Source: a virus (Duplodnaviria; Caudoviricetes). Taken from it: a DNA stretch of 56,411 bases. Shown here piece by piece: positions 7,197-35,491 of this stretch (position 1 is the first letter of the stretch; every line of letters starts with the position of its first letter). A model generated the notes under the pieces. It was given only the letters and a program-made list of their open reading frames with translations. It was not told the origin of the DNA and did not search any database. Position numbers and translations under genes: made by a program. The DNA lies in IMG/VR virus record IMGVR_UViG_3300032893_000056, positions 1-56,411 of that record; one strand, 5' to 3'.

Positions 7197-7225
7197 ATCT
7201 TATATTAGATTGTTACGAAAAGCAA
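7197..7225 (-). promoter_or_regulatory. Putative sigma70 promoter for the SSB
   Basis: TTGCTT-17bp-TAAGAT in an AT-rich gap. Confidence 0.5.
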
Positions 7226-7944
7226 GCATCTCGTGTAATTTTTTCCATGTTCTTGAGATCCATGCCGAACTTCACCTCACAGTCGAGGGGAACGACCCAC
7301 TCGTAACCGAAACATCTCTTGATGTTGGCGATCAGATCATCGAACACTTCGTAAAACAAGCGTGCGATCTGGGAAATATACTGAGCCTCCGCATCGATCA
7401 CAATCGAATCGTGTACGGTGGAAACAACCAAGGCTGGGATTCCACTTGATTTCAGTCGCCGGAAGAAGCTGATCCGGGCAATCATCATAACATCCGCACC
7501 TGTGCCCTGCACCGGGTAGTTCGTCAGAGTTGTCCATGGTATCTTTATCTCTCCCGATGGGCTACGACCAAGGTTGATGATCCACTGCCTTCCACTCGGA
7601 CCCTCCAATGGCCTTCCGGCAACGACACTGTTGCACCATTGTTTGTGGCACTTATCGATTCCGGAATACTTGGAGTAGAACTTTTCTCCGATTCCATCCC
7701 AGAACTTTGGATCGTTAGAGACGTGAGTAAAGGCTGGATCGTGCGCAAATGACCAACCACTTCCTCGATAGATTGTGCGGAAGAGATAGATCTTTGCAAT
7801 GAGGCGAGAAGGCAGATCAAATGATGCTTGGTTGAGACTATGTGTATCCGCTCCTGCAAGGACTTCAGCAATTCCTGTTGAGTCACGACTCATCTCCAGT
7901 AGTACGCGCCACTCAAGCTGGCTTGCGTCCGCTTGTATTAGCAA
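7213..7944 (-). CDS. Family A DNA polymerase, C-terminal part (palm/fingers)
   Basis: Motif A ADASQLEWR, motif B RLIAKIYLFRTIY, NYPVQGTGAD, motif C TVHDSI. Confidence 0.9.
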   Translation of the reverse strand: MLIQADASQLEWRVLLEMSRDSTGIAEVLAGADTHSLNQASFDLPSRLIAKIYLFRTIYRGSGWSFAHDPAFTHVSNDPKFWDGIGEKFYSKYSGIDKCHKQWCNSVVAGRPLEGPSGRQWIINLGRSPSGEIKIPWTTLTNYPVQGTGADVMMIARISFFRRLKSSGIPALVVSTVHDSIVIDAEAQYISQIARLFYEVFDDLIANIKRCFGYEWVVPLDCEVKFGMDLKNMEKITRDACFS

Positions 7945-8133: not shown

Positions 8134-8264
8134 GTGGTGATCTCCGCATTTTGTTCATTAAGATTTTGAATCATCGCCAACAGATTGGTAATGTCCGCCT
8201 GATAGGCAGCCAATTGCTGTTGGTTATTCTGAAGGAGTTGTTGTAGTACTTGTTGAATTGTCAA
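8109..8264 (-). CDS. Small Q-rich coiled-coil protein between the polymerase halves (51 aa)
   Basis: Read manually: GAGG, TTG start overlapping the pol stop; MTIQQVLQQLLQNNQQQLAAYQADI... Confidence 0.55.
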   Translation of the reverse strand: MTIQQVLQQLLQNNQQQLAAYQADITNLLAMIQNLNEQNAEITTWLAANPG

Positions 8265-9397
8265 TCGTTATACCTCGAAATGAAAAGGTCGTTTGCTTCA
8301 CTATCTAGATTCTGGAGATTCGGGCCACTGGAACTGAGACGCCCGGTGGCTACGGTCACTTGATTAAATTGGCCGTGGAGATATCCCGGTTCCCAATTCT
8401 GTTCCGCTGCTTTCTTGACCAGTCCTTCATATGTCTTGGACAACAGAGTCTCCAGTCGTGTTTGCTTTTGGATAAGCTCGATAATCCTCCGAGTCTTTCG
8501 TGATGGTTTCAGCTTCAGTAGGGTATCAGCATTGGTAGCGAAGTACCCCTCCTTCTTAAGTGCTGACCCACGGAGAGGTTCAACCAGCCGAGGCAATTGG
8601 TGCTCTACTTTATTTACTTTGAAGCGAGGTTCACCAATTCGTTTGCCTGACTTGTAATAACCGATACACTCCCTTACTTCTTCAACAATCGTCCCACCGT
8701 AAAGAAAGGCAGACAGATGGTCCCCAGAAGAGAAGTTAATAGGCACATCAGGATAAACTCCGTGAAGTTCGTTGGTGATTTCTGATATCTCGTTTTTAAT
8801 CTCCTCAGCACGGCTCCTACAGAGTTCCTCATTATACCTGATGCCGTTCCACTCCATCTCCTCCAGTACCAACAGGTCCAAACACATCAGCCGCACTAGT
8901 CGCTTTGATGTTGGCGGCATATGTTCCATCTGGTTGTAGTACAAATTCAAGGTTTGTTGGGCATCCGTGGATGCATAGGATGAAAGTATCTCCCACGGAA
9001 TATCCTCCGTCTGAATTCCCTTCGCCCAATACTCCTTCGCCACTACGTCTTCCTTGTGTCCAAGCCCATATTTGACTAAAGACTCCTCCAGTGAGGGATA
9101 CTTCCATGTTTGATTGCTCCTTACAAATTCAGCTAGCTGGCAGTCCCAGACTCGTTTGTCCCCCCACTCGACTCCAAGTTTTCTAAGGACGTGTGCATCA
9201 TATTTGAAATTGAAACCAACGAGAAGGTCAGCTTGTCTAATTCGTTCTGCAAGTTCCGCAAGACTATCCGGGCTTGTCTTAACTGCTCCTGCACCACTTT
9301 GATCTGCCCAACTCCAGCATACATTTTTGAATCGTCGATCAAATGGGGCCCCAACATTATAGGTATTATTTTCCGTATCCAAAGCTAGAACTTTCAA
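8261..9397 (-). CDS. Family A DNA polymerase, N-terminal part (3'-5' exonuclease + thumb)
   Basis: ExoI LDTE, ExoII GFNFKYD, ExoIII YASTD, EMEWNG, ATGRLSSSGPNLQN; GGAGG then TTG overlapping the HNH stop. Confidence 0.9.
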   Translation of the reverse strand: MKVLALDTENNTYNVGAPFDRRFKNVCWSWADQSGAGAVKTSPDSLAELAERIRQADLLVGFNFKYDAHVLRKLGVEWGDKRVWDCQLAEFVRSNQTWKYPSLEESLVKYGLGHKEDVVAKEYWAKGIQTEDIPWEILSSYASTDAQQTLNLYYNQMEHMPPTSKRLVRLMCLDLLVLEEMEWNGIRYNEELCRSRAEEIKNEISEITNELHGVYPDVPINFSSGDHLSAFLYGGTIVEEVRECIGYYKSGKRIGEPRFKVNKVEHQLPRLVEPLRGSALKKEGYFATNADTLLKLKPSRKTRRIIELIQKQTRLETLLSKTYEGLVKKAAEQNWEPGYLHGQFNQVTVATGRLSSSGPNLQNLDSEANDLFISRYND

Positions 9398-9822
9398 ATA
9401 CGCCTCCAAGATTTTCGGAGTTTGATAGCACTAACATTGGCTTTGGTAATTCCATACTCTTTGGCAATCTCCAATTGTGGTCGAACATCCTCACGTATCC
9501 GCAGTACCTGTTCTGCCGTTAACTTTGGTGTTCCATTTCGAGCTGCCCTCCCTTTACGTACCATATCCTCCATATTGTCTTTGTGTGTTCCTATGAACAA
9601 ATGAGCAATCTCATAACACGCGGGATTATCACAATGATGGCAAATTTTCATGCCTGTTGGAATAGGTCCGTTATATTTCATCCACTCCAATCTATGAACT
9701 CCTTGTGGACGACCCTCATATTGTTTCATTCCATAGCCGTCTTTGTCCTTATATCCCGCCCATTCTTTACACGGAACTGTATTCCACGTGTTATTCTCGG
9801 TATCGATCGCTAATACGTTCAC
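9394..9822 (-). CDS. HNH homing endonuclease with C-terminal HTH
   Basis: C.EW.G..DKDGYG..VHRL..ICHHCDNPAC..HLFIGT..DN..D..KGR; KLT..V..IR..LEIAKEYGI. Confidence 0.88.
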   Translation of the reverse strand: MNVLAIDTENNTWNTVPCKEWAGYKDKDGYGMKQYEGRPQGVHRLEWMKYNGPIPTGMKICHHCDNPACYEIAHLFIGTHKDNMEDMVRKGRAARNGTPKLTAEQVLRIREDVRPQLEIAKEYGITKANVSAIKLRKSWRRI

Positions 9823-12933: not shown

Positions 12934-13593
12934 TCACTTGACAGGAGTTGCAATATTGATGCCATAAGGAGTTTCACCAAAACCTTGAGGGTTAAAAATG
13001 GCTTCTGCTTGTCCCAAAACACAACCTTCTTCAGTATCGATTACTGCTCCACCACTATTTCCCGGAAGAATCTTGGCATCCAGAATAATCACACCGTCAT
13101 TATCGGGCTTCTGAATATATCCAAAGGACATACTATCCATAACCCCATATGGTGCTCCCATAATGGCGATAAACTCTCCGTAATAAGGTTTGAATGTACA
13201 AACTTTGAGGCCCGAGACCACGTGACTTGTGTCCGTTTTCGGAATGAGTGTGGCAAAATCCTCCTTATCAGCATCAACGGTACTTACCCAATCAGTTTTC
13301 CAAAGCTCTATTGTCTTATCCGAGAAATACACAACCACTTCGTGTTCTCCCGGATGGAAGTCAAAACAGTGTGCAGCCGTGTGAATCTTTCCATCTTTTG
13401 CACTGATCCAACCAGAACATACGGCTCCGCCATCCGTCTCAAACTGCACCACATTCTCTTGTAACTGCGTCAATGTGGGAGGTTGATGACTGTTGATATA
13501 GTTAACTTCCACCTTCTGATGAATACCAATAGCTACTAATACTGCGAATGAAAGTGCTCCAAGAAAGGAACCGAATTTGATAAGAGTGTTCAT
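12934..13593 (-). CDS. Trypsin-like serine protease with N-terminal membrane anchor
   Basis: Hydrophobic N-terminal helix; TAAHC, EDFA, PGNSGG catalytic triad motifs. Confidence 0.85.
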   Translation of the reverse strand: MNTLIKFGSFLGALSFAVLVAIGIHQKVEVNYINSHQPPTLTQLQENVVQFETDGGAVCSGWISAKDGKIHTAAHCFDFHPGEHEVVVYFSDKTIELWKTDWVSTVDADKEDFATLIPKTDTSHVVSGLKVCTFKPYYGEFIAIMGAPYGVMDSMSFGYIQKPDNDGVIILDAKILPGNSGGAVIDTEEGCVLGQAEAIFNPQGFGETPYGINIATPVK

Positions 13594-13778
13594 TTGAGGA
13601 TCTCAGCAAGTTTTTCATCATCATAAATTGCGTGAATCATCTCATTAGCCAAGCGAATACTCTGACGCATAAGACCATCAGTGGTCTGAAATTGCGTAGT
13701 TACACTATTGCTTAGCATTGCATCAAAGATACCAGCAGAATAACAAAGCAGCCTTTCTTTTTCAGAATTAACTTTCAT
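13590..13778 (-). CDS. Hypothetical protein
   Basis: Operon packing. Confidence 0.55.
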   Translation of the reverse strand: MKVNSEKERLLCYSAGIFDAMLSNSVTTQFQTTDGLMRQSIRLANEMIHAIYDDEKLAEILK

Positions 13779-13780
13779 GC

Positions 13781-14092
13781 TTAAGCCACCAGTGAATCGT
13801 CAGGATAAAACCAGTGAAAACTCTCCGATCCATCATATTCATGAATCTCGAAACGATTACCTTTTGGCACCCATTCAATTCGAAGGTCTGGAGCCCCTCC
13901 CGTATAAAGATATTCACCGGGATATTTATTTTTAACATACTCCGGAATATCTTCACGCCTATTCTCTTCTACCATTTGCACCACAACCGGATCAAATATG
14001 AGTTCTTCTTTGTTATGCCAGCTATACCAACCAGCACCATAGCCGGGAGAATAAAGCACGGCAATCTTTCCATCACGTTCAACTTTGTCCAT
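13781..14092 (-). CDS. Conserved phage hypothetical protein
   Basis: DGKIAVLYSPGYGAGWYSW..FDP..GG..DL.IEW..F.I.EYDGSE. Confidence 0.7.
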   Translation of the reverse strand: MDKVERDGKIAVLYSPGYGAGWYSWHNKEELIFDPVVVQMVEENRREDIPEYVKNKYPGEYLYTGGAPDLRIEWVPKGNRFEIHEYDGSESFHWFYPDDSLVA

Positions 14093-14855
14093 AAACTTTT
14101 TCCTTAATATAGCGTTGAATGGCAACCTCGCTATAATCTTTTGGATCTAGCTCCGTATAGATCACATAGGATTTACAGCCTAATAGGTCAGTTCGTTCCT
14201 TCTGCTTCTGTGCATCTTTATACTTATCAGCATCCAACCACCACACTAGGTGGTCAAATCGCTTGCTGATCCGGGCAAGTTTCCGAGGCGAAACTGTTGA
14301 AGAAAAGCACGGGATTCCGACAAAGCCGGACTTTCCCACTTTGAGTGCGCTGATGCAATCTTCGACAAATACTCCAACCGGACCGTCCGTTTGTTTTGGA
14401 GGATAAGTTGCAATAACTTCTTCTGGTGTTCCTCCAGTAAAGAAGCGTGATTTGTGGTCGGTGCCGCTTCTGAAGTTTCGGGCTTGCCAGAGGACAACAT
14501 CCTCATCTTGTCCATAAAAGAGGTATACGAGTTGTTCACGACGTTGACTCCATTTGATGTTGTTACGAATAAGATCTTCTACATGTAGATCATACTTCCT
14601 TATCCAATGAATGGCAGCCTCTCCGTACTCAAAGTTAAGGTCTTCAGGAGGGGGTCGTAGTCCTTGATCTGATAATGATGGTGCCGAATTACCCCTTTCA
14701 GCCCCTCTAATTGCCGTTTCCACTTCTCCTCGGTAGAATTTTCCGCATCCAAAACAAAAACCCGTCCCGTTAGAATACCATCCAACGTTGTCTCGACTAC
14801 CACACGTCTCACAAGGGCCGTGTCGAACAAATCTAGTTCGGTCTCGTTCATACAT
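14079..14855 (-). CDS. DNA primase (Zn-binding + TOPRIM)
   Basis: H.PCETCGS.D..CFGC; VEDCISALK; WLDAD; DPK. Confidence 0.88.
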   Translation of the reverse strand: MYERDRTRFVRHGPCETCGSRDNVGWYSNGTGFCFGCGKFYRGEVETAIRGAERGNSAPSLSDQGLRPPPEDLNFEYGEAAIHWIRKYDLHVEDLIRNNIKWSQRREQLVYLFYGQDEDVVLWQARNFRSGTDHKSRFFTGGTPEEVIATYPPKQTDGPVGVFVEDCISALKVGKSGFVGIPCFSSTVSPRKLARISKRFDHLVWWLDADKYKDAQKQKERTDLLGCKSYVIYTELDPKDYSEVAIQRYIKEKVYGQS

Positions 14856-15162
14856 GTTTACCTCTATTGACTTTCTTGGGTTTGATGATCTCCATCGTCA
14901 ACAACGGAGCCACAGTTACCCACAACTGGTAGTGTTCATCTTCGGCTCGATTGGTGGAGATGCATTCTTCCTTCTTACGTACGATATAACCAGCCGAACC
15001 CTTTGCCTTGTCGATTGCTTGCGCTGCTCGTCGCATTGATAATTGTACCTCCGGACACATACAGCTACTTGGTTGGTCACACGTAGTGTTCTTTTTCCAC
15101 GCGTCACCACTTTCAAACACCCTTCCACAAGCCTTACAGGTAACCTTACCGACTGTCTTCAT
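14848..15162 (-). CDS. Cys-rich hypothetical protein
   Basis: CKACG..TCDQPSSCMC. Confidence 0.55.
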   Translation of the reverse strand: MKTVGKVTCKACGRVFESGDAWKKNTTCDQPSSCMCPEVQLSMRRAAQAIDKAKGSAGYIVRKKEECISTNRAEDEHYQLWVTVAPLLTMEIIKPKKVNRGKHV

Positions 15163-15394
15163 CGTACCCTTCTTCGAGTCCAGTGATCCCAAACCCACTT
15201 GTTTCGAAGCTTTCATCGGTTGCATCATCTCCCATATCAATGTTTTCGACGTAACCTTCTCCGTCGACGGCAGCAATATCATCAGCAACATAAGAATAAC
15301 AACGATCACATAGATCCACGAAGCTTCCATTGGATGAATATTTCCTTGTTGATTCTCGATTGTTTAGTCGTTTATCGCAGGAAAGGCATCTCAT
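15146..15394 (-). CDS. Zn-finger protein with acidic tail
   Basis: MRCLSCD..L...E.TRK..DLCDRC, D/E-rich C-terminus. Confidence 0.7.
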   Translation of the reverse strand: MRCLSCDKRLNNRESTRKYSSNGSFVDLCDRCYSYVADDIAAVDGEGYVENIDMGDDATDESFETSGFGITGLEEGYDEDSR

Positions 15395-15837
15395 TATCGA
15401 CGACCTCGAAGAATTTGTTGGTTTGCTAGGCGGATCAGTGCTTCTTGACGGAGCCGTTGTTGGTTCTCATTCAGATCGTTCCAACCAATAGCGAATTCTT
15501 CCTGTACCGCATATACGGGTTCTGGTTCCTGTTTCTTTTTCACATTCGGTGGTACCAGAGTAAGGATAATATCTTCCTGCGTGAGCCGATCCGGGAAGTT
15601 GCGGGCCTTACTGTTGAAGTAAGACACCTGGCCCGTGATCGGAGCCTTAATGGACTCCAGCGCATCATTGGTTTCAATCACCAACATGGCCCCTTCCTGC
15701 TCCACACGACGCGTATCGGCTTGCAGCACATGGAAACATTCATTCATCTTGCGGTTGATGAACGCTTGCACGAATCCGATGTTGATAGTCCCATCTTCTT
15801 GCTCATCAATCCAGATATCACCTTGAACTTGTTTCAT
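15394..15837 (-). CDS. Glycine-cleavage H-protein (GcvH)-fold protein lacking the lipoyl-lysine
   Basis: IWIDEQEDGTINIG / VIETNDALESIKAPITGQV..N..P aligns by eye to GcvH EWLRKEADGTYTVG / VAESVKAASDIYAPVSGEI..N..P. Confidence 0.72.
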   Translation of the reverse strand: MKQVQGDIWIDEQEDGTINIGFVQAFINRKMNECFHVLQADTRRVEQEGAMLVIETNDALESIKAPITGQVSYFNSKARNFPDRLTQEDIILTLVPPNVKKKQEPEPVYAVQEEFAIGWNDLNENQQRLRQEALIRLANQQILRGRR

Positions 15838-16007
15838 TTCCGAATCTCCTCAACGGATACAGCGGTTACCAGATATCGCTTGCCATAGAATTTCTGGCGA
15901 CGATCTACGATCTTAACAGGAAAGTTATCGGTGCGAACGTACCCATCGAGTTCCCATTCCCCGTCTTCAATTCGGGTCACGGTTATAACATAGAGTTCCA
16001 ATTTCAT
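15834..16007 (-). CDS. Small hypothetical protein (57 aa)
   Basis: Read manually: MKLELYVITVTRIEDGEWELDG...; TGATG and ATGA couplings to neighbours. Confidence 0.65.
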   Translation of the reverse strand: MKLELYVITVTRIEDGEWELDGYVRTDNFPVKIVDRRQKFYGKRYLVTAVSVEEIRK

Positions 16008-16870
16008 CACACACCTCGAATGTGTTTTACAAAAGCCGCTGCGTATTTGTCCACCGTCGATCCCTCAAGACCGGGAGCCGTGTTGACTTCCAAACAGTAC
16101 ACCTCGTTCCGTTTGGCATTATATATGAGGTCAACGGCTCCAAAGTCCAAGCCAAGTTTCGACACAGCCGCCACCGCCATTTCTCGCAGTCGCTCTGGTT
16201 CGACGATGTTTTCACGACAATAGACCCATCCGGTCTGATGATTACGTACCTGAAAGTTTGTAGCGAAGTCGTCGGGGAGATCTCTTCGCTTTCGCTTTTC
16301 TTGAACATCGATCACTTCTCCAAAGGCTACGTGAACACGGAACTCCTGTTGCTTCTTCACATATCGGACATATAGCGGCGCAGCAGGCAGCGTAGCATCT
16401 TGCTCACTAACCAATACAATCCCAGCCCCGCTATGACCAGTAAGCTTAGTACGAGCCACAACAGCCACATGATCTTCTCGAAGCCACTTGTAGGCCACAT
16501 CAACATCGGTTGTGAATTCAGGAATTCGAATACCTTCTGCATCTTTCAGGGCCTCGAAAGTATGTAGCTTATTACCAGCACGAGCCACAGAATCAAACCG
16601 ATTGATAACGTGATCCACCCTAACATTCCCATTACTGCACCCCCAATTAATCAAATGCCGAACACCTCGTCGATCAAAGATCGGATTGGGGCGATCATTG
16701 TAGAGTCGTACCACTCGGGACGACAATAACTGAGCCATTCTTGCCGACAGGTTCGCCGCTGACTGACTCGCTATCTTGTATGGCAGCAGAGCGACTAGTC
16801 GCGGGCTGGCCCTTACGATCCTGTTGAACTGCAAGTTTCTTCTGGTAGTACGTTTGGCTGTATTTTGCAT
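16007..16870 (-). CDS. ATP-grasp ligase (RimK/phiEco32-like)
   Basis: PYK.ASQSA, INWG, NKL..F, GHSGAGI, EFRVHV, VRNH..GW, LDFGAVD, LEVNTAPGL. Confidence 0.88.
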   Translation of the reverse strand: MQNTAKRTTRRNLQFNRIVRASPRLVALLPYKIASQSAANLSARMAQLLSSRVVRLYNDRPNPIFDRRGVRHLINWGCSNGNVRVDHVINRFDSVARAGNKLHTFEALKDAEGIRIPEFTTDVDVAYKWLREDHVAVVARTKLTGHSGAGIVLVSEQDATLPAAPLYVRYVKKQQEFRVHVAFGEVIDVQEKRKRRDLPDDFATNFQVRNHQTGWVYCRENIVEPERLREMAVAAVSKLGLDFGAVDLIYNAKRNEVYCLEVNTAPGLEGSTVDKYAAAFVKHIRGV

Positions 16871-18329
16871 AGAACTCCCCATCGAGGGCCTTCATAATAC
16901 AATCGGGACACACGACTTCAACTGCGTTAATCGGATTGCCACTCTGAGTCTTGCCGTGGACACCCTTGGTTTTGACACTTGTCCAACCACGTTCCCAATC
17001 TTCGATTAGACCACCACAATCACGGCAGGAACAGGTGTCAGTTACATGATGCCACAGGCGCTCACTAACAACTTGAGCATTGTGGGCCAGTGTTTGCGGA
17101 AGCAATTCACAATCCCGAACATAGACCGAGATACCACAGACAGTCTTGGTACACCAGCCCACCTTGGCAAGAATGGGAAATTCCATCCACCGAGGCCACT
17201 CATTCCCAAGGAGGCTGCGAGGCAAGAACCCTTGAGCGTCGTACATCTCGACGCCGGGCTCGACGACTTTGCCTGTCCATTTGATAGCGCCGTTGGGCAA
17301 GGCTTTCACATCCCAGATCTTCACCGCGATCTCTCGGCCTTTTGGGAGGTCTGCCAACTCCACCTTCAAAGACTGTTGCTGTGCCTCCAGACTAGTAAGG
17401 CCATCCTCTCCACCGACCTTCTTCGATTTGGAGTCGCTGTTCGTCGTACTGGTCGACGTCAGAGCACACGTCTTTTGCATCGGTGATGCAGGGGAACAAT
17501 CTTTTTTTGCCGCCGGAAAGGTTACCTGCGTCCCCTTCAGCGGCAATGCCTCCCCCAAGTCATCCTCCCATGTGCCGGCAACGCCTTGCGAGGCCATCCA
17601 AGCCTTGTATCGAGCTGCCATCTGCGGATCTTGATGGAGACCCACTGGCTCTGTCTTCAACTCACCCCTCAGATTGAATGTGAGCAACTCCCCGGGTTCA
17701 ATTTCCTTTGACTCAATGACTTTGATACGCTCACGGATACACGGAATGGTCGCCATCCACGACTCACTGGCGAGAAAGTAGAAGTCATCTGTGGTGATCA
17801 AAGACAGGGGCCGTTGGTCATTCCGCACAGCATGGAACAACTCCGTTTCCATATCGAACCACAGCAGAGCAAACGCCCCTTCGATAGTGGGGATAACTTT
17901 CTGTGGTGTACCTTCCGTCAGTGCATGGCAGATTGCATGGCTATCAACTTCCACCTTTTCAGTGGTGAGCTTTTCCCAACCATAATCGAGAGTACCATTG
18001 TGCATCAGCACGATGTTCTTCTCATAGAACGGATGGGCATTCTCATTGGTCACATTGCCACGAGTTGCTGCTCGGTTGTGGCCCGCAAGAATACGACCTT
18101 CACCTGTGGAACGCAGTCGAAACTGATTCCATTGTTGACACCGGAGCATGAAGTATGGCTGCTCCGCTTGTTTCATCATATCCACCGATCCATCTCGGCG
18201 AATGTTGATAACTCCAGTCGAATCTTTGCCTCGAACAGTATCGAAAATCAACATCTGTTCGAACATATCCAGAGTCTTTGAGTTGAAACCCATCGGTCGT
18301 CGAGCGACAATGCTTACGAGGCCGCACAT
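16695..18329 (-). CDS. Class II (Ntn) glutamine amidotransferase with long C-terminal extension
   Basis: N-terminal MCG, RGKDSTG, GHNRAAT.G, NAHPF, HNGTL, VDS, RN..RPL; C-terminal CxxC pairs. Confidence 0.88.
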   Translation of the reverse strand: MCGLVSIVARRPMGFNSKTLDMFEQMLIFDTVRGKDSTGVINIRRDGSVDMMKQAEQPYFMLRCQQWNQFRLRSTGEGRILAGHNRAATRGNVTNENAHPFYEKNIVLMHNGTLDYGWEKLTTEKVEVDSHAICHALTEGTPQKVIPTIEGAFALLWFDMETELFHAVRNDQRPLSLITTDDFYFLASESWMATIPCIRERIKVIESKEIEPGELLTFNLRGELKTEPVGLHQDPQMAARYKAWMASQGVAGTWEDDLGEALPLKGTQVTFPAAKKDCSPASPMQKTCALTSTSTTNSDSKSKKVGGEDGLTSLEAQQQSLKVELADLPKGREIAVKIWDVKALPNGAIKWTGKVVEPGVEMYDAQGFLPRSLLGNEWPRWMEFPILAKVGWCTKTVCGISVYVRDCELLPQTLAHNAQVVSERLWHHVTDTCSCRDCGGLIEDWERGWTSVKTKGVHGKTQSGNPINAVEVVCPDCIMKALDGEFYAKYSQTYYQKKLAVQQDRKGQPATSRSAAIQDSESVSGEPVGKNGSVIVVPSGTTLQ

Positions 18330-18334
18330 AGAGG

Positions 18335-19252
18335 TTAGATTCCTTTAACGATTTTGGTGGTAAAGAACGGAGCGGTAGCAACGTCTCGCTCAACAATCAA
18401 CTTCGTGGTCGTGCCGGTGGAGATAAACGCTTGCTTCATATTGGCCACAGATTCACGAATCTCTTCGTAACCAGTATATCCAAGAGCTCCCATATTTGAA
18501 GTTCCGAAGATATCCAATAACAGCAGGCCGACGTTGACGGACTCGTCAAATCCATGCAGCAGTTTTCGAAGCTCACCTACATCTGACTTATGGACGAAAT
18601 CCACCAAACGGGTAAGCATATCCACCCACTTCGTGAGCTTGGCCACATCGCGAGTACCGTGCATATGGCGGAACTCAATGGTGCCTTTCTCTCGTAACGG
18701 AACCAGATTCAGCCCGGAATACTTCGACCAACCATCGGTAACGTTGTTCAATCGCTTATCTGCGATACCGGAAAGTTGGGCTGTCTCCAGTACAGGAACA
18801 CAAAAGATATTCTTGTTTCGCCCACGACCAGCAAATCGATAGAACAACGGTTCGAACACTGAATACAGCAGCACAATATTCGAGATCTTTTCGATGGGCA
18901 CATCTTGACAGTTCACGTGGACATGTACACTTGTCCGAGGACTGAAGCAACATTCATCCATCAGTGCTTCATTCATCAGATTGTGCAGTGCTCCCGGTGC
19001 ATATCGCGCTTGGATGGGCCGAGTGAGCCATTCGATGCCATTATTGCGCAAGCTCCCATCATCGGTAGCTGTCCACACAGCCTTTGGATATTGACGAAGC
19101 TCATGATTTTCCACTTCAACTTCAATGCCAACCAGCCGATTTGATAGTCCTTCTTCCGGCTGGATACCATCAGGCACATGCTCTCCCACCGCATCTAGTC
19201 CGAAGTAATTTCGAACGGTTACCACCTTCGGAGCAGCAGGTTTCTTCGCCAT
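18335..19252 (-). CDS. Putative amidoligase (glutamine synthetase/GCS-like, Amidoligase_2)
   Basis: GIEVEVE, DDGSLR..GIE, RTSVHVHVN, KYSGLN, GTIEFRH. Confidence 0.85.
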   Translation of the reverse strand: MAKKPAAPKVVTVRNYFGLDAVGEHVPDGIQPEEGLSNRLVGIEVEVENHELRQYPKAVWTATDDGSLRNNGIEWLTRPIQARYAPGALHNLMNEALMDECCFSPRTSVHVHVNCQDVPIEKISNIVLLYSVFEPLFYRFAGRGRNKNIFCVPVLETAQLSGIADKRLNNVTDGWSKYSGLNLVPLREKGTIEFRHMHGTRDVAKLTKWVDMLTRLVDFVHKSDVGELRKLLHGFDESVNVGLLLLDIFGTSNMGALGYTGYEEIRESVANMKQAFISTGTTTKLIVERDVATAPFFTTKIVKGI

Positions 19253-19253
19253 C

Positions 19254-19874
19254 TTAGCTTCCATGTAGAACCTCATTGACGTTAGCTTCCATCACCTCTT
19301 CATACAAGGTGGCCAGTTTCCCATCAGCAGTCACACGAGCAACCGGATCTGTCCAGAACAGCAACAGATGCTCCTTCGCCTGAGTCGGACTGAGTGCAAT
19401 CGAGAAGTTATTCTCCAATGCAACACTCCGAGCCATGCGCTTATCTAACAGTTGCAGGGCTTCACCTATCGGATATGTCTTGTGCTTAAATGCGGCACTC
19501 ACCGTATTGATGGACATATTATGTCCCGGCCCACCCAGATGGCGCATGGTAGTGGACAACGTACTATTGTCTGAACAGATACCACGCCGCCACTGACGAG
19601 CAGGCCGCCTATGGAAATAACACGCATTGCTCCCATGTTGAAATACACCACTCTTGGGATAACGGAACATCAGGCTGTGATCCGAACTACCAAGATTTAT
19701 AGTCATGGAGCCGTAGTCCGCAGACTCAAGGTGTAGCACACCTACCTTGCTCTCGTCGTGTTCTACTTGGCGGACGAATACCAGCGTTTCAATTCCCTTA
19801 CCCTTCATCTTCAGCCAGACGTAGGTCTCTTGCCAGCGTCGGCGAAAGTCTTCTACTACCTGTGCGTTATCCAT
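19254..19874 (-). CDS. Hypothetical protein embedded in the ligase cluster
   Basis: P.SG.F..R.PARQWRRG; position between two ligases. Confidence 0.7.
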   Translation of the reverse strand: MDNAQVVEDFRRRWQETYVWLKMKGKGIETLVFVRQVEHDESKVGVLHLESADYGSMTINLGSSDHSLMFRYPKSGVFQHGSNACYFHRRPARQWRRGICSDNSTLSTTMRHLGGPGHNMSINTVSAAFKHKTYPIGEALQLLDKRMARSVALENNFSIALSPTQAKEHLLLFWTDPVARVTADGKLATLYEEVMEANVNEVLHGS

Positions 19875-19875
19875 A

Positions 19876-20652
19876 TTAAAGGTCGAACTCCAGTTTCAGT
19901 TCAGCCAGCAGATCCATGTCGCTCTCGTTGATACAGCGTTGAATCCTTATACCTTGTTCTTCCGTGAAGCCTTTGCCACTACGAGCATAAGCAAGAGCCT
20001 TCTCCGACTGGTCCCATGCCCATTGAATACGCTCGTCCGTTTCGATCCAAGCGTTGGATGCCGTGCGATACTCCACACCATACGGCTTGTACCGGAATGC
20101 ACCAGCTTTGCCATACAACTCCCTCCGTTGTTTGTCGTGGTCAAACTCCAACATGAGACAGCCCACGAACAGATCCATTGCCTTGATTACTTCGATCGGA
20201 TCATCGACACCCATATCCAATGCAACATGAATGTGACCACCACACGAACGAAGATTCTTATTCTTCGAACGCGGGCGGGGATTCATCCGACCATCCTTCC
20301 ACGCATTGAAGTCGGGCTCACACCCGAACGTTTGAGCTTCTCGACTGTGCAATTGTTCGTCGGTAAACTCAGCCGATGGGATGATACACATCTCCAGACC
20401 AAGGGACTTCGCCTTCTCGGCGATCCATTCCTTGTTGATGTTGATGTGCTTGATGAAGTCTGCTGCGGATTGGCACGGCGGAGTGTTGAACTCCACTGCA
20501 ACGTTATCCTCCTGCACAGCGTTGCCCTGTTCATCGATGGGCATCGGACGTTCCTTTGAACCCCCGATCTTACGAACACTGCTGATGAACTCTCCATTCA
20601 GCGGATTGCGGAGAAACACTTCCGGGTCGCTTCCGAGCATAAAGTTTTGCAT
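19876..20652 (-). CDS. phiEco32-like COOH-NH2 ligase type 2
   Basis: LGSDPEVF, IGGSK..P, QEDNVAVEFN, FGCEPDFNAW, RSCGGHIH, RRELYGKAG..R.KPYGVEYRT.SN.W. Confidence 0.9.
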   Translation of the reverse strand: MQNFMLGSDPEVFLRNPLNGEFISSVRKIGGSKERPMPIDEQGNAVQEDNVAVEFNTPPCQSAADFIKHININKEWIAEKAKSLGLEMCIIPSAEFTDEQLHSREAQTFGCEPDFNAWKDGRMNPRPRSKNKNLRSCGGHIHVALDMGVDDPIEVIKAMDLFVGCLMLEFDHDKQRRELYGKAGAFRYKPYGVEYRTASNAWIETDERIQWAWDQSEKALAYARSGKGFTEEQGIRIQRCINESDMDLLAELKLEFDL

Positions 20653-20669
20653 GTTCAAACTCCCTTACA
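20645..20669 (-). promoter_or_regulatory. TGTAAG-N3-GTTTG-N6-CAAAM site covering the RBS and start of the COOH-NH2 ligase
   Basis: TGTAAG GGA GTTTG AACATG CAAAA; matches the early-region copies. Confidence 0.55.
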
Positions 20670-21348
20670 GATCGTTAAGGATAAACTTATGAACAAGTTG
20701 CATACAATACTGTACAAACGGATCATTCTCCGGGTCCGAATGGAACTCCGGGTGACCCTGAATAGCCAATGCCTTGATCTTCGGGAACCACACAATCTCA
20801 GGTTCTACCTTATCCTCCATACGTGGATCAGACGTATCATCCCCAATGATGTAGCAACCACGCGAGCGAGGCTTCTGTGCCCACGCAATCATCTCGTGAT
20901 CCACATCAAACGGATACATCATCTGATGGTGTACCGAACTAGTCACGATATCATCACGTCCATCGAACGTAGACAACAGGTGCCTCCTGCCGTGGTTCTC
21001 GACGTGTTGGATCAACCGTCCCCCAGCAAGGGCACATACCAGTTGAGCGCCTCGACATACACCAATAATGGGGATATCCCTCTTGATGCACTCTTCGACG
21101 GCGGCTTTTTCGACGATATCACGGTGAGATAGACGGGCATCAGCCCCATTTGCCGCAGATACCTTGTCTCCGTAGATGGTCGGCGAGATATCTTCCCCAC
21201 CCCATACAACCAGCGCGTCAATGTCGGCTCCATCGGCGATATCCTTTGGACGAACAAACAAACCCTTCGGGTACACTTGATCAAACGGCTCATGTTCACC
21301 TGTACCCATCCCAAGATAACCCAACGTCTTAATAGTCATTGTCATCAT
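20665..21348 (-). CDS. Class I glutamine amidotransferase / peptidase C26 (gamma-glutamyl hydrolase-like)
   Basis: GGEDISP, GVCRGAQL nucleophile elbow, S.HHQ, QGHPE. Confidence 0.88.
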   Translation of the reverse strand: MMTMTIKTLGYLGMGTGEHEPFDQVYPKGLFVRPKDIADGADIDALVVWGGEDISPTIYGDKVSAANGADARLSHRDIVEKAAVEECIKRDIPIIGVCRGAQLVCALAGGRLIQHVENHGRRHLLSTFDGRDDIVTSSVHHQMMYPFDVDHEMIAWAQKPRSRGCYIIGDDTSDPRMEDKVEPEIVWFPKIKALAIQGHPEFHSDPENDPFVQYCMQLVHKFILNDL

Positions 21349-21368
21349 CCTCGTCAATAATCCGATCT

Positions 21369-21734
21369 TCAACCGTTTTTTTGATTGTAAATGTACCAGC
21401 TATCTACCGTGTTGCTGGAATTTTCGTTGTAAAACGTGCCGATGTGCTTGGCATCTGGATGTGCCTTGACAAGAGCACGCAATTCTCCCGCACAGTAGCC
21501 CTCTTCATCCTTCACCCCATAAACATCTTCCTCATATTCGTCCGGATACTTGGGCTTGACAAAGTTGAAGATAAGAGGTTGATCTTGGGCTTCTTCGAGG
21601 GCACTCTTCAACACCTTTTCCCATGAGTTATGTTGAATCTCGCAGGAGCTATAACCATCCCGCACGCGGAAATAACCGGCTTCATAGAAACCGCAGCAGT
21701 GGGGAAGGGGATTCACATCACAGCCGTATCTCAT
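21369..21734 (-). CDS. Hypothetical protein (CCG motif)
   Basis: PHCCGFYE..FYNENSSNTV. Confidence 0.65.
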   Translation of the reverse strand: MRYGCDVNPLPHCCGFYEAGYFRVRDGYSSCEIQHNSWEKVLKSALEEAQDQPLIFNFVKPKYPDEYEEDVYGVKDEEGYCAGELRALVKAHPDAKHIGTFYNENSSNTVDSWYIYNQKNG

Positions 21735-22132
21735 GGTTGATTCTCCTTCAGAACCAATTCACCAGCATTGTTGAACGTTTTCTCGATTACCGGAGCCTCA
21801 CCGGTTTCATATACGGAGAGCACACCAAGCACACCATACAAAACCTTTGGATTCTTGGTTGCCAACTCCTTTGCATGGACTTCTGCAATCTCTTGAGTGG
21901 AGAAAACGATCACCGGATCACGCAACTCACTGCGAATCAACTCCTGCCCAAAACCATCTGCTTCCAGATAAATCGGATTGGGTTCAGCAGCGACCAATTC
22001 CTCCGGAGCAGGACCAACATCGAAGTTACGAAAACCGCGCTGTCCACGAGGCGCTTGTGGCATCTGTCCGAGAACAGGTTTGGTATTGTCTCGTTGCCGC
22101 CCGAGACGAATCACATAAAACTCAGGTTTCAT
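21731..22132 (-). CDS. Hypothetical protein
   Basis: Operon packing, RBS. Confidence 0.65.
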   Translation of the reverse strand: MKPEFYVIRLGRQRDNTKPVLGQMPQAPRGQRGFRNFDVGPAPEELVAAEPNPIYLEADGFGQELIRSELRDPVIVFSTQEIAEVHAKELATKNPKVLYGVLGVLSVYETGEAPVIEKTFNNAGELVLKENQP

Positions 22133-22135
22133 ATC

Positions 22136-22381
22136 CTACTCCACAATAATCTGGGGAACTCCATTATCGACTAGAAAATCAGCATCAGCATTGGTGAGTC
22201 TGACCTGTGAAACAATTGCTAATGGCCGTAGACCCTCCAACTTCCGACCTGTTTTTTCCTCCAATGCCAGCAACACCTCCGGAAAAGAGCGATATCGGGA
22301 CAAGATACCATAATACTGGCCCCGAGCAATCACCGTTGTATACAGTTCATAATATGGCCATTCATTGGTCTGAACGATCAC
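22136..22381 (-). CDS. Hypothetical protein
   Basis: Operon packing. Confidence 0.6.
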   Translation of the reverse strand: MIVQTNEWPYYELYTTVIARGQYYGILSRYRSFPEVLLALEEKTGRKLEGLRPLAIVSQVRLTNADADFLVDNGVPQIIVE

Positions 22382-22929
22382 ACTTCCACTCCTTGAGCTT
22401 CTGCGATGGCATCAAGAGTATCGTCATCCAAAGCCGCATGAATGACAATCAAATCTTCTGCCCACGCTTGCTCTATCTCTCCGATCATATGCCACTTGAC
22501 CGAGTATGGATGATATGGAGCCATCATTCCACGTGGAATCTTGTGGACAAGCATGATGGTTCCCCACTGCTGAGACCACTTATGGTGGCCCTTAGCTGCC
22601 CACTTACGACACACAATGGCACCTTCACCAAAACCCTCCACTCGCTTGAGATCCAGATAATCTTGAACCTCTTGAAGTGAGGGATGCGGAGTCAACAGAT
22701 ATTGAACCTCCTTGGGAACACGACTATTCATCGCATTCTTGCTGCTAATCAAACGACAATTCGTTCGATCTCGATAGTTTACAAGATTCACGGGTTCTTT
22801 CCTCGGATCGGTGTATGGCTCCGGAGTTTTCTTTTTCTCCCCAAATGAAAGATTGTGAGTAATGGGAGCCTCAAAATAATACTTACCCGGCTCCCCCTTG
22901 TCCACATACACATGTGCTCGCTTAGCCAT
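22378..22929 (-). CDS. Hypothetical protein
   Basis: Operon packing. Confidence 0.65.
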   Translation of the reverse strand: MAKRAHVYVDKGEPGKYYFEAPITHNLSFGEKKKTPEPYTDPRKEPVNLVNYRDRTNCRLISSKNAMNSRVPKEVQYLLTPHPSLQEVQDYLDLKRVEGFGEGAIVCRKWAAKGHHKWSQQWGTIMLVHKIPRGMMAPYHPYSVKWHMIGEIEQAWAEDLIVIHAALDDDTLDAIAEAQGVEV

Positions 22930-23764
22930 CTTTTCTTACGCCAAGGTCTTCAACAACATAATTTTGTATTCCTTTGAGATAGGCGTTCCCGCCAAGAAAA
23001 GGAGCGAAACCTCCTTGGTCAATCGGTTGCGGAACAACCGGAGCCGGGTCCAGTTTTGGAACCCCTGCCCTGAGTGCAGGTCGAACATCTGATGCCCCAA
23101 CGGCACCAAGAGATCCCCGTTCTCCAGCTTTTGCCTTTTGTTGAGCCATTGCTTCACGAGCTTGTCGTTGTTCATCTTCCCACACTCCTTTCATATAAAG
23201 GGGAATAAAGGTGCTTTCGGTATTCCAATACACCCAGTCGTTAAGCTTTTCTGCACAGTTGCGTGGATTCCACCGAATCAGGTGCAGATTTTCGGGACCG
23301 TGGACATTATTGGGGAAAATGCCCATATCCACCGCACCATGATCCATAAACCACTTTGGCAGGTCACAATCACCCCACTTATTCTCAAACTGACTTTCCG
23401 TCACACACATCAACAGATCAGGAACCCGCAAAAACCCTTCCTTTGGTTCCCAATACAACATTCCCCGGAGAATCATGGACAGCGCTTCTTGCCACTGGAT
23501 ACTGTCGCTTGTCCAAATTCCGTGCAACTGTTCAATCGAGCTTGTACCACAACAGATAAACACGCCGTTTTCAACCATGAGAGAATTCCAACCCTGTCTC
23601 TGCGTGATACAAGTCTTAACGTTGTACACACGAGGCGGAAACTGGCCTGCTCCGATGTGTTCCGCCCGAATCGTAGAAAAGGCTTCCGGCTTCATCCAAC
23701 CAGTTGAATCAAAGATGTTGCTGGCTTTTAAAGAAACAGGTTTGTGCGTCACAGCCGCTCCCAA
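22922..23764 (-). CDS. Hypothetical protein (CCG motif); start uncertain
   Basis: FICCGTSSI..TESQ..IFPNNVHGPENL. Confidence 0.65.
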   Translation of the reverse strand: MGAAVTHKPVSLKASNIFDSTGWMKPEAFSTIRAEHIGAGQFPPRVYNVKTCITQRQGWNSLMVENGVFICCGTSSIEQLHGIWTSDSIQWQEALSMILRGMLYWEPKEGFLRVPDLLMCVTESQFENKWGDCDLPKWFMDHGAVDMGIFPNNVHGPENLHLIRWNPRNCAEKLNDWVYWNTESTFIPLYMKGVWEDEQRQAREAMAQQKAKAGERGSLGAVGASDVRPALRAGVPKLDPAPVVPQPIDQGGFAPFLGGNAYLKGIQNYVVEDLGVRKDG

Positions 23765-23870
23765 TAAAAATCAACGGTTGACTTTCCGACTTTTCCTTTT
23801 CTTCCTCGCCGATTTGGCGCAAAAGAGCATTGATCTCGTCGAACGATTCTTCATTCAGAACAGGAATCAC
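23709..23870 (-). CDS. Small hypothetical protein (53 aa)
   Basis: Read manually: GGAGG then GTG, MIPVLNEESFDEINALL. Confidence 0.5.
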   Translation of the reverse strand: MIPVLNEESFDEINALLRQIGEEEKEKSESQPLIFIGSGCDAQTCFFKSQQHL

Positions 23871-24124
23871 AGCGCCTCCATGATGGCATCAAAAGGTTTC
23901 TGGTCGTGCAGCACAAAAATCTCCCGCACATAACGAGCGGACTTCAGACGGCCTTCAGCCTTCACACGACCAGTTCGGCGACAGAAATTGTCGCGTTCAT
24001 GGCACTTGGCAAGAGCGAAGCGAACGATACCATTTTCGTAGATAAATGCCACAGTCGTGCCACCCTTGACCGTGACACAATGATTAGCGTCGCGATTGCG
24101 AAGATGAATAAACTTAGCATCCAT
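23867..24124 (-). CDS. Conserved phage early protein
   Basis: GGTTVAF..AKC..RDNF.RR.GR..A.GR. Confidence 0.65.
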   Translation of the reverse strand: MDAKFIHLRNRDANHCVTVKGGTTVAFIYENGIVRFALAKCHERDNFCRRTGRVKAEGRLKSARYVREIFVLHDQKPFDAIMEAL

Positions 24125-24268
24125 AGTTACTCTCCAGAATGACCAATCGTTCAGATACATCTTTGTACTCTTTTGCAAGAGCGCGTAACGCTAACGCGAC
24201 TGGAGAGATTACATCATCTTGCTCCAGCACATCAGCAATTCTTAATGCTTCGGTGATATCCATGTCGA

Positions 24269-24616
24269 CTACTCCTCGTATTCGACTTCAAATTCCTTGA
24301 TGATGGGGCGATCGTAGATTTTCGCCCACTTACGATTCCTTTCAGTATCACTACACACGTGAACGGCCTTATTCGTGTTTCGATACAAAAAGAACTTCGC
24401 TTTCTTGAATTCAGGGAGCATTCGAAGGCTAGTCGGCGGTCGGAAAGCGATATTACCATTAACGCCATATTCGTAAACAATATCTCCCCTTGTAGTAGTT
24501 CCAATGAATCGGAAATTGTTTTCAAAGAGGATGCCATTATAGAACTGAACAAAAGGCTTCCCAGCTTTTGCCTTTTCCAGATCAAACGGCTTGAGCTTCA
24601 ACGGGTCCATATCCAT
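24269..24616 (-). CDS. Hypothetical protein (KPFDLEKAKAG family)
   Basis: AGGAG RBS; motif familiar from proteobacterial phages. Confidence 0.6.
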   Translation of the reverse strand: MDMDPLKLKPFDLEKAKAGKPFVQFYNGILFENNFRFIGTTTRGDIVYEYGVNGNIAFRPPTSLRMLPEFKKAKFFLYRNTNKAVHVCSDTERNRKWAKIYDRPIIKEFEVEYEE

Positions 24617-24791
24617 AGCCAAACTCCTTAGAAAGATCGGTTGCATGAAAACGAGCAGAACGGATGAAATAATCCGGATACAACTTTTCCGCTTCACTGT
24701 GTGCTTCAACGATAGTTTGCGTATTGACGTGAATCCGCTTAACGTCAAACGGAGCCTGCGTATTTACCATCGTTACTTCCCAATTAGTCAT
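24582..24791 (-). CDS. Hypothetical early protein
   Basis: GGAGG RBS before MTNWEV. Confidence 0.6.
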   Translation of the reverse strand: MTNWEVTMVNTQAPFDVKRIHVNTQTIVEAHSEAEKLYPDYFIRSARFHATDLSKEFGYGYGPVEAQAV

Positions 24792-24802
24792 AAAACCTCC
24801 TG

Positions 24803-24988
24803 CTAATGCATTGGTGCTGCGAGTAAAGAACCCATCAAAATCGGATAGGCTTGGCACAACTCTGAAATAGAATCGCATCCCAATTCCGGGTGCGCCGCAA
24901 GATATTTTTCGAACGCTTCACTACCACTTGACGCTTCATGGCGTTCAATCATATTCAGGCTTGTATTGTGGATGATTGCATATTCCAT
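24803..24988 (-). CDS. Hypothetical early protein
   Basis: GGAG RBS. Confidence 0.6.
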   Translation of the reverse strand: MEYAIIHNTSLNMIERHEASSGSEAFEKYLAAHPELGCDSISELCQAYPILMGSLLAAPMH

Positions 24989-25002
24989 GGCAAATCTCCA
25001 AA

Positions 25003-25027
25003 GTTTGCAGGTTCAAACACCCTTACA
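25003..25027 (-). promoter_or_regulatory. TGTAAG-N3-GTTTG-N6-CAAAC site next to an RBS
   Basis: TGTAAG GGT GTTTG AACCTG CAAAC TT TGGAG. Confidence 0.65.
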
Positions 25028-25132
25028 GGTGCCTAACACCATACAATTTCGTCAAACGACACGAATTGATGGTCAATTAGGCCTTTACCCTTACGCAGAC
25101 GATAATAGCCATCCGGGAAGATATACATTTTG

Positions 25133-25288
25133 TTAACCATGATGGTAATTATCCGTGTCAGTCCATTCTTGATGGACGGTGTAGTTAACATCGGTCACTT
25201 GCATCATACTGTTTTGCAAGTGTTGATTGCGGCAATCGATTACCCAAAGGTGCATAACCGTTGCCAACCCGACAAGTGCGGTAACCAT
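25133..25288 (-). CDS. Small hypothetical protein
   Basis: Read manually; AGGAG RBS. Confidence 0.45.
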   Translation of the reverse strand: MVTALVGLATVMHLWVIDCRNQHLQNSMMQVTDVNYTVHQEWTDTDNYHHG

Positions 25289-25289
25289 A

Positions 25290-25439
25290 TCAATGCTCCT
25301 GTTCCGAAGTCAAAAAGAGCCATGCCTGCTCATAATTACCTTGTCCGTCGAATGCGGACCATTCAAAACCATAGTCATCCACTACAAGGGAACAGAACCA
25401 ACATGGGGAGTTATCGCTTACGGCAAAGTCTAAAACCAT
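25290..25439 (-). CDS. Small hypothetical protein
   Basis: Read manually; TGGAG RBS directly after the palindromic site. Confidence 0.5.
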   Translation of the reverse strand: MVLDFAVSDNSPCWFCSLVVDDYGFEWSAFDGQGNYEQAWLFLTSEQEH

Positions 25440-25449
25440 GATGACTCCA

Positions 25450-25474
25450 GTTTGAACGTACAAACATCCTTACA
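25450..25474 (-). promoter_or_regulatory. TGTAAG-N3-GTTTG-N6-CAAAC site next to an RBS
   Basis: TGTAAG GAT GTTTG TACGTT CAAAC TGGAG. Confidence 0.65.
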
Positions 25475-25508
25475 AACCTGTAAGACCATCTACAGGGCCT
25501 TGTAATGC

Positions 25509-25530
25509 AAAAAGCCCGCATATAGCGGGC
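25509..25530 (-). terminator. Intrinsic terminator, last of three tandem hairpins at 25509-25606
   Basis: GCCCGC-TATAT-GCGGGC-TTTTT on the minus strand. Confidence 0.75.
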
Positions 25531-25634
25531 ATCGAAAGGAAACAGAGGAACCCCGCATAAAGCGGGGTCCGGTTACTTCAGTTCAAGGTAGTTAGCTGAA
25601 ACTACCAGAAACCATTGTACAGTGGTATTACAGA

Positions 25635-26480: not shown

Positions 26481-26515
26481 TTTGAAAGTCTCCACAGGAT
26501 GAACAAACACCAAAA

Positions 26516-34861: not shown

Positions 34862-35476
34862 ATGGCTAACGTTAGTCGCCCGAATGGCCTCCGTCCGGTG
34901 AAGCATATTAACGGTTCCCCCTTCAATGGTCAAGTGAACCGCTATTACGCTGCTTCTACGGATGGCACGGCTATTTTCAATGGTGATCTGGTAACCCTCG
35001 CGGCAGTCACCGAAAACCCCGGTGCTACACTTCTGGGTGGTTTTAATGCAACTGTTGGTGGTACCCAAGGTGTGACCAAAGCTACGCTTGGTGCAGGTAA
35101 TCCTGTGGTTGGTGTTGCTGTTGGTTTTATGATTAATCCCCTTAACTTGAATACGCCGCAGTATCGTACGGCTTCGACGGCAATGTATGTTCTCGTTGCG
35201 GACAATCCGGATACCGTGTTTGAAATTCAATCCCAAGTCGCTCCGACGCCTACGGATCTGAATAGCAATGCAGTGGTTACGGATGGTGGTGGTTCGACTA
35301 CGACTGGTCTTTCGGGTCAATATATCAGTTCGTACAACACTGGTGCAACGAACCAGCTTAAGGTTGTTGGTGCAGTTCAACGTGTTGACAACGATATCAC
35401 GTCGGCAAATTACAAGGTTCTTGTTGTGCTTAATAACCACCAGTATAACGGTGGCACCGGCACGGCTGGCGTCTAA
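34862..35476 (+). CDS. Capsid-associated (decoration/cement-like) protein
   Basis: MAN...P.GLRPV..IF.GD.V..V.D.PD..FEIQ; directly upstream of the MCP. Confidence 0.65.
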   Translation: MANVSRPNGLRPVKHINGSPFNGQVNRYYAASTDGTAIFNGDLVTLAAVTENPGATLLGGFNATVGGTQGVTKATLGAGNPVVGVAVGFMINPLNLNTPQYRTASTAMYVLVADNPDTVFEIQSQVAPTPTDLNSNAVVTDGGGSTTTGLSGQYISSYNTGATNQLKVVGAVQRVDNDITSANYKVLVVLNNHQYNGGTGTAGV

Positions 35477-35491
35477 TAGGAGGATTAAAAA

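Follow-up and report, generated by a model that had tools for sequence, protein, structure and literature searches.

A lysine-less H-protein-like protein encoded beside the amidoligase cluster of a tailed phage

Why does a tailed phage carry, in the stretch that follows a set of ligase genes, a protein with the fold of the glycine-cleavage H-protein (GcvH) and without its defining lysine? The question is raised by the IMG/VR virus record IMGVR_UViG_3300032893_000056 (Duplodnaviria; Caudoviricetes), the whole of which, 56,411 bp, was analysed here and is referred to as the window. Early and replication genes occupy its minus strand from about 27,000 down to 250, and structural genes its plus strand from 28,421 to 53,785. 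The GcvH-like open reading frame (ORF) lies downstream of a RimK-like ATP-grasp ligase gene that adjoins amidoligase and amidotransferase genes (Table 1). Its product lacks the lysine but belongs to the H-protein branch of the lipoyl/biotinyl 'swinging-arm' fold, in a family so far found only in phage-type contigs. As to its role, we tentatively favour, at a probability of about 0.4, a lineage-specific protein substrate or carrier of the ligase module, whose acceptor would likely be the Asp or Glu at position 58 of the hairpin tip or, less likely, the C-terminal end.

An H-protein fold with an acidic residue at the hairpin tip

The likeness to H-proteins, which the original prediction had drawn by eye, is borne out over a domain of residues 1-99 by profile, model and structure comparisons. 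The protein matches the Pfam family GCV_H (PF01597) at E 2.5e-5, with 24.6 bits against a cut-off of 22.2, residues 7-84 aligning with profile positions 7-84 of 122. An AlphaFold2 model built with 150 relatives reaches a mean predicted local distance difference test score (pLDDT) of 92, with values of 96-98 over residues 1-100, and replaces a model built with only 7 sequences, which had a pLDDT of 58 and fell below 50 in the hairpin region. In Foldseek, all 22 PDB matches at E ≤ 0.001 are H-proteins or H-protein complexes. VIA-align of model residues 1-99 recovers 19 H-protein entries at Z scores of 11.4-13.2 (root-mean-square deviation 2.1-2.6, 97-98 aligned residues), whereas plain lipoyl or biotinyl domains reach only Z about 6-7, and the domain is therefore assigned to the H-protein version of the fold. 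Look-alikes in the ESM Atlas are H-protein clusters, and the BFVD viral structures hold no match at E ≤ 0.001, two giant-virus lipoyl domains appearing at E about 0.01. A single-sequence phmmer search of PDB sequences reaches an H-protein only at E 1.3, its better rows being unrelated helical proteins that match the tail, unlike the family-profile search, which finds both an H-protein and lipoyl domains. The match to the H-protein fold is well beyond chance.

The residue at the hairpin tip can be placed by two routes. Strands 50-56 and 60-64 of the AlphaFold2 model leave N57-D58-A59 as the turn, and the family profile aligns 'ETnd' with 'ESvK' of the Thermotoga H-protein and with 'EGDK' of the E. 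coli E2p lipoyl domains, so that D58 stands at the position of the lipoyl-lysine, as had been predicted from the sequence. The family alignment comprises 155 sequences, namely the 150 listed representatives (the best 150 of 160) and close matches. Position 58 is D in 114 of these, E in 25, T in 6, S in 4, N in 2, G in 2, C in 1 and M in 1; it is acidic in 139 and K in none. We infer that the GcvH-like protein cannot be lipoylated at the usual place. The lysine of the nearby ESIK motif (K64) was considered as the functional lysine and rejected: it closes the second strand, 60-64, and although the 7 closest sequences all have it, just 33 of the 155 carry K there and the column ranks 91st of 100, which upholds the earlier view that ESIK is not the hairpin.

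The family is sizeable. An exhaustive search yields 160 cluster representatives (50% identity) at E ≤ 0.001, 138 of them at E ≤ 1e-10, and no canonical H-protein stands among the best 150 of the 160 phmmer matches. The window protein has no tblastn match in 50,697 deposited phage records and no match to a PHROG family; a short divergent form (L053) likewise finds no match among deposited phages, and megablast of 12 kb of the window returns none. The only family member found in a cultured phage is a 94-aa ORF, left unannotated, that immediately follows the ATP-grasp gene in Alcaligenes phage vB_Af_QDWS535 (L007:7782-8063; positions 35404-35685 of the phage record), which scores E 3.5e-15 with the family profile hidden Markov model (HMM), carries Tyr in the tip column, lacks C34 and H36, and matched only itself in the tblastn search.

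Conservation is concentrated in the domain and extends beyond the tip. E55, P66 and P82 are kept in all 155 sequences, G21 in 153, G69 and A78 in 152, W9 in 151, P50 in 148, H36 and F81 in 141, C34 in 140, T56 and N57 in 136 and L60 in 133. C34 and H36, which rank 11th and 9th of 100 columns and are both better conserved than D58, align with a hydrophobic V and Y of the Thermotoga H-protein and are specific to the GcvH-like family; they went unremarked in the original prediction. Short divergent relatives of 94-106 aa lack a tail, and in four of these (L038, L053, L059 and L065) C34 and H36 are lost while the tip still reads E-G-S-D.

Behind the domain, the 48-aa tail of the window protein is modelled as a linker (pLDDT 62-80) followed by a helix at 120-145 (pLDDT 82-94), and is short and half helical. 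The fast-evolving tails of the family, with a high Ala, Arg, Pro and Gln content (A 13.5%, R 10.3%, P 9.8%, Q 8.0%), span 12-170 aa with a median of 86. Of the 155 sequences, 41 end in R and 38 in F, which suggests that the extreme end of the tail is recognised by something. Two endings recur in the family, one basic, of the R-x-R type, and one in which Phe follows an acidic stretch; counting any hydrophobic closing residue, 41 of the 155 tails end in such an acidic stretch.

A complete H-protein fold, with the N-terminal part missing from plain lipoyl domains (Z 11.4-13.2 vs ~7), on an acidic domain with 15 D/E vs 9 K/R would suit a decoy of host H-protein or lipoyl domains, blocking GcvP, GcvT, GcvL, lipoate ligases or E1/E3 enzymes. 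In the structural alignments, however, no more than 11-19% of residues are identical to those of solved H-proteins, canonical H-proteins are missing from the best 150 of the 160 phmmer matches, and mimicry would not account for the gene's strict placement behind the ATP-grasp gene, for the conservation of C34 and H36 or for the variable tail. A decoy for host lipoyl or ADP-ribosyl enzymes had been put forward in the original prediction; no support for it was found, and a decoy role appears highly improbable.

Gene context and the proposed role

The GcvH-like gene is tied to the ligase genes by overlapping starts and stops. The ATP-grasp stop overlaps the start of a small ORF in GTGA (16007-16010), and the stop of that ORF overlaps the GcvH-like start in ATGA (15834-15837); the overlaps described earlier are thus real, the bridging ORF being 58 rather than 57 aa long. 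This 58-aa ORF has no Pfam or PHROG match and no tblastn match at E ≤ 1e-3 in 10 related loci, and L006 lacks it, the stop of its ATP-grasp gene running straight into the start of the GcvH-like gene by overlap. As a conserved part of the system it was rejected, since it has no counterpart in related loci and none in L006.

Related contigs were collected by pattern scans of IMG/VR (patterns A1 and A7 on viral contigs and A4 on genome contigs returned no loci), together with 80 loci from a scan with the neighbouring helicase. In each of the 17 contigs whose upstream DNA could be read, the family member is directly preceded by an ATP-grasp homologue (the window, L002-L006, L009, L011, L014, L015, L038, L053, L059, L062, L065, L088 and the Alcaligenes phage, L007), at a gap of 0-528 bp except in L088, where one gene stands between; three further family members sit at contig ends and are uninformative, and these contexts cover a minority of the ~160 members. 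The tie in position to the ligase cluster that had been claimed for the window alone therefore holds wherever it could be read. Among the 80 helicase relatives, ligase genes occur with a family member in 10 and without one in 30, and 35 are uninformative; the ligase genes are absent from the remaining 5, a call that needed at least 2.5 kb of upstream DNA in view, and none of these 5 carries a family member (HMM E ≤ 1e-3 for all such calls). Homologues unlinked to ligase genes, which the original prediction had named as a refuting observation, were thus not found there. The GcvH-like gene is an accessory of one lineage of roughly 50-56 kb phages.

The case for a substrate or carrier, a role already suggested in the original prediction, draws on a fold that holds one residue out to visiting enzymes, on neighbours that activate carboxylates, and on a layout resembling that of a lipoyl domain and its linker. 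It also draws on the conservation of the tip, which reads E-G-S-D even in four divergent forms without C34 and H36, on the uniform place behind the ATP-grasp gene, and on the composition and recurrent end residues of the tail. ATP-grasp enzymes of the RimK, LysX, TTLL and graspetide types activate protein carboxylates, including those of side chains. In the proposed mechanism the domain would hold out its conserved tip, T56-N57-D/E58, to the carboxylate-activating ligases in the manner of the lysine on a lipoyl domain. The ATP-grasp enzyme would phosphorylate the tip carboxylate, which would then be joined to an amine, and the tail would tether the domain flexibly, its short C-terminal end being used for docking or as an acceptor. 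Because the module is also found without the GcvH-like protein, the latter would serve as a target or an add-on in this lineage only, rather than as a universal carrier. A single complex prediction, pairing ATP-grasp residues 45-291 with the GcvH-like protein, each entered as an alignment, scored 0.27 against a mark of 0.32.

A number of observations weigh against a substrate or carrier role. The module clearly works without a GcvH-like protein in most phages, which argues against an obligatory carrier: a family member is missing from 30 of the 40 cluster-bearing relatives, and none was found within 4-7 kb of the ATP-grasp gene in any of five more distant cultured cluster phages (Pseudomonas K4, oyster phage KZY1, Vibrio 1.208.B, Rhizobium RHph_N3_13 and Escherichia 1-6bf). 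What follows the ATP-grasp gene varies: in 20 loci the slot holds an unrelated protein of 213-301 aa, for which no Pfam family and no useful Atlas match was found, and in 3 loci it is empty; L088 and L029 carry both this protein and a divergent GcvH-like gene. The tip itself is not invariant. Position 58 is non-acidic in 16 of 155 sequences, including two of the six closest relatives, the tip column holds R, L, N and Y in L062, L088, L029 and the Alcaligenes ORF, respectively, and the conservation of D58 as a single residue places it no higher than 30th among the 100 columns. Beta-turns are commonly formed by Asn, Asp and Gly, so that part of the tip motif could be structural. The conservation of C34 and H36 is left unexplained by the carrier or substrate model.

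These features would be accommodated by a protein that is never itself modified, a non-covalent adaptor, regulator or pseudo-substrate docking through the tip or through the C34/H36 face on one of the module's enzymes, whose activity it would tune or redirect. A slot occupied by a GcvH-like protein, an unrelated family, both or nothing is more in keeping with an exchangeable accessory than with a core carrier, the tip tolerates substitution, and C34 and H36 point to a surface other than the tip. Set against this, T56-N57-D/E58 is kept across sequences that are only ~30% identical and is combined with a swinging-arm-like linker, as a residue presented to an enzyme needs, and an adaptor is considered rather unlikely.

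The context evidence also has limits. The 17 contigs all come from a single syntenic lineage of phages with helicases 45-60% identical and a shared gene order, so their uniform adjacency is not independent evidence and may only reflect conserved gene order; the presence/absence table of the helicase relatives trends in the expected direction but, at Fisher p = 0.27, carries no statistical weight. The overlap coupling, moreover, continues on the other side, where the GcvH-like stop overlaps the start of a downstream 82-aa zinc-ribbon ORF in TAATG (15392-15396), followed by primase and helicase genes. The 82-aa protein, of CxxC...CxxC type, is kept in relatives both with and without the ligase cluster. 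It is conceivable, then, that the GcvH-like protein has no functional link to the ligases and is a small early or replication-module protein in a hypervariable slot, its N-D-G turn left over after loss of the lysine and its tail ends docking on replication or host proteins. Some phage replication proteins are known to have an acidic tail with Phe at its end, and both the frequent terminal Phe and the acidic endings closed by a hydrophobic residue would agree with such docking. Against this stand the five relatives without ligase genes, which keep the zinc-ribbon, primase and helicase genes and yet carry no family member, the divergent forms, which always keep their position directly after the ATP-grasp gene, and a tip conserved more strongly than is usual for a purely structural turn. 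An absence of any functional link is accordingly thought unlikely.

The substrate or carrier role can be extended into an 'inverted' swinging arm, in which the tip Asp or Glu would anchor an amide-linked arm of amine or peptide built by the ATP-grasp and glutamine-synthetase-like ligases, and the Ala/Pro/Arg-rich tail, together with its terminal R or F, would keep the domain attached to the assembled enzymes. This extension is doubtful; if true, it would be the first case of a prosthetic arm anchored on a carboxylate in this fold, and would give the phiEco32-type cluster its first known protein substrate. Short of that, the GcvH-like protein offers a concrete candidate substrate or partner for a widespread cluster, and the proposed role, if true, would mean that the H-protein scaffold is reusable without lipoate. 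Should the link to the ligases be only positional, there remains a large unannotated phage family, with ~160 clusters, no PHROG family and one cultured phage.

Neighbouring ligase genes and other features of the window

Upstream of the GcvH-like gene, the ligase and amidotransferase genes follow one another on the minus strand (Table 1). In its longest form, the ATP-grasp ORF shares 188 nt with the amidotransferase gene (16695-16882). Its real start probably lies downstream of 16882, because most called homologues are ~240 aa long and similarity begins at residue 25-30. ATP-grasp homologues are present in 315 of the 50,697 deposited phage records. Among the 20 window proteins scanned with Pfam (12934-26513) there is no glycine-cleavage P, T or L protein, no lipoate ligase (LplA2 included), no sirtuin and no macrodomain.

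Table 1. Positions of the GcvH-like gene, its parts and its neighbours in the window, and of the protein that fills the same slot in related loci
Feature	Position	Strand	Basis or remark
GcvH-like ORF	15394..15837	minus	147 aa; Pfam GCV_H above cut-off; AlphaFold2 pLDDT 92; H-protein structural matches Z 11.4-13.2
H-protein-type domain, residues 1-99	15541..15837	minus	pLDDT 96-98; span of structural alignments; conserved part of the family
C34-F35-H36, family-specific conserved Cys and His	15730..15738	minus	strand after helix
Hairpin tip E55-T56-N57-D58-A59-L60	15658..15675	minus	turn between strands 50-56 and 60-64; profile alignment; D58 codon GAT at 15664-15666 (lipoyl-lysine column)
K64 of ESIK	15646..15648	minus	end of strand 60-64; not hairpin tip
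Variable C-terminal tail, residues 100-147	15397..15540	minus	linker, then helix 120-145, end RGRR
Shine-Dalgarno GAGGAG	15846..15851	minus	8 nt before GcvH-like ATG
58-aa ORF bridging ATP-grasp gene and GcvH-like gene	15834..16010	minus	GTGA and ATGA overlaps
CxxC...CxxC protein, 82 aa, acidic tail	15146..15394	minus	overlap-coupled flank outside ligase module; weak DUF7685 match, E 0.016
RimK-like ATP-grasp ligase	16007..16882	minus	Pfam RimK E 8.6e-5; phrog_2599 E 3.3e-72
Class-II glutamine amidotransferase, C-terminal half without assigned family	16695..18329	minus	GATase_6 E 7.2e-13, residues 76-189; phrog_4736
Amidoligase_2 (glutamine-synthetase-like ligase)	18335..19276	minus	PF12224 E 6e-8; phrog_7469 E 2.7e-40
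206-aa cluster protein, no named family	19254..19874	minus	phrog_11055; conserved in syntenic loci
phiEco32-type COOH-NH2 ligase	19876..20658	minus	PF14395 E 2e-10; phrog_3815 E 1.4e-70
Class-I amidotransferase / peptidase C26	20665..21372	minus	PF07722 E 1.9e-18; phrog_7218
Slot-filling protein, 213-301 aa	L032:6375-7055, L039:7000-7671, L088:4837-5574 and 17 further ORFs		

In agreement with the original prediction, no description of an H-protein-like gene as part of this cluster was found in a literature search that did not cover the 2009 study of Iyer et al., which reportedly defined the phiEco32-type amidoligase cluster and may mention one. PMC10580990 states that the roles of the phage amidoligase and amidotransferase are still to be explored, PMC8989533 places amidoligase and amidotransferase genes of unknown function beside thymidine-hypermodification genes, and PMC6209634 gives the genes only as a list.

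Elsewhere in the window, two full-length ribonucleotide reductase genes lie at the ends of the record, at 250-2139 and 53983-55887 (both on the minus strand), and their proteins are 88% identical (553/630). The pair could represent tandem paralogues, if the genome is circular or permuted, or an assembly that ran past the full circle into a related strain. Of the sequencing runs listed as containing the window, none is of RNA, and the only one that contains it in full is a wetland metagenome, which may be where the DNA came from. The family-A DNA polymerase is apparently in pieces, in a region with ORFs at 7213-7944, 8261-9409 and 9394-9822 (all on the minus strand), of which the 243-aa ORF matches DNA-polymerase PHROGs. 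A 142-aa ORF between the helicase gene and the 382-aa polymerase piece begins like the start of that piece, and by eye it resembles an HNH homing endonuclease. At 12934-13593, also on the minus strand, a trypsin-like serine peptidase (PF13365, E 4.7e-11) is encoded between primase and helicase; most of the related loci keep it.

Comparison with known systems

The closest relatives by structure are the H-proteins themselves, with which the phage protein shares its fold over residues 1-99 as well as E55, the P66...G69 motif and P82. It differs in having Asp for Lys at the tip, in Cys34 and His36 and in a variable tail of 12-170 aa, and its gene neighbours encode ligases, amidotransferases and replication proteins. 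It is not considered a functional H-protein, because the defining lysine was looked for and is absent.

A second comparison is offered by GcvH-L of the SirTM/LplA2 operons (5a35), which is among the best structural matches (VIA-align Z 12.3; Foldseek template modelling score 0.69 by target) and is likewise a stand-alone H-protein-like protein beside protein-modifying enzymes. GcvH-L keeps its lysine and is lipoylated and ADP-ribosylated, whereas the phage protein has no such lysine and has amidoligases as neighbours; with neither the lysine nor a neighbouring sirtuin, macrodomain or LplA2, it is not a GcvH-L.

The layout of the phage protein recalls E. coli E2p (7b9k), in which a barrel-sandwich hairpin domain is followed by a flexible Ala/Pro-rich segment, and the family profile matches three E2p lipoyl domains and continues into the Ala/Pro linker (E 5.4e-9). 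Unlike E2p, the phage protein has no lysine and no catalytic core behind the linker, and its tail ends in a short helix or motif.

Among ligase systems, the window neighbours correspond to the phiEco32-type amidoligase cluster, with matches to PF14395, PF12224, an ATP-grasp enzyme and two amidotransferases; the difference lies in the GcvH-like component, which, within 4-7 kb of the ATP-grasp gene, is neither annotated nor found in the five distant cultured cluster phages. LysW with LysX/ArgX offers an analogy, in logic only, as a small acidic protein beside a RimK-family ATP-grasp enzyme. One carboxylate of LysW is amide-linked to the substrate, its fold is a zinc ribbon and its attachment site is a C-terminal Glu, whereas the phage protein has an H-protein-like fold and the C-terminus RGRR.

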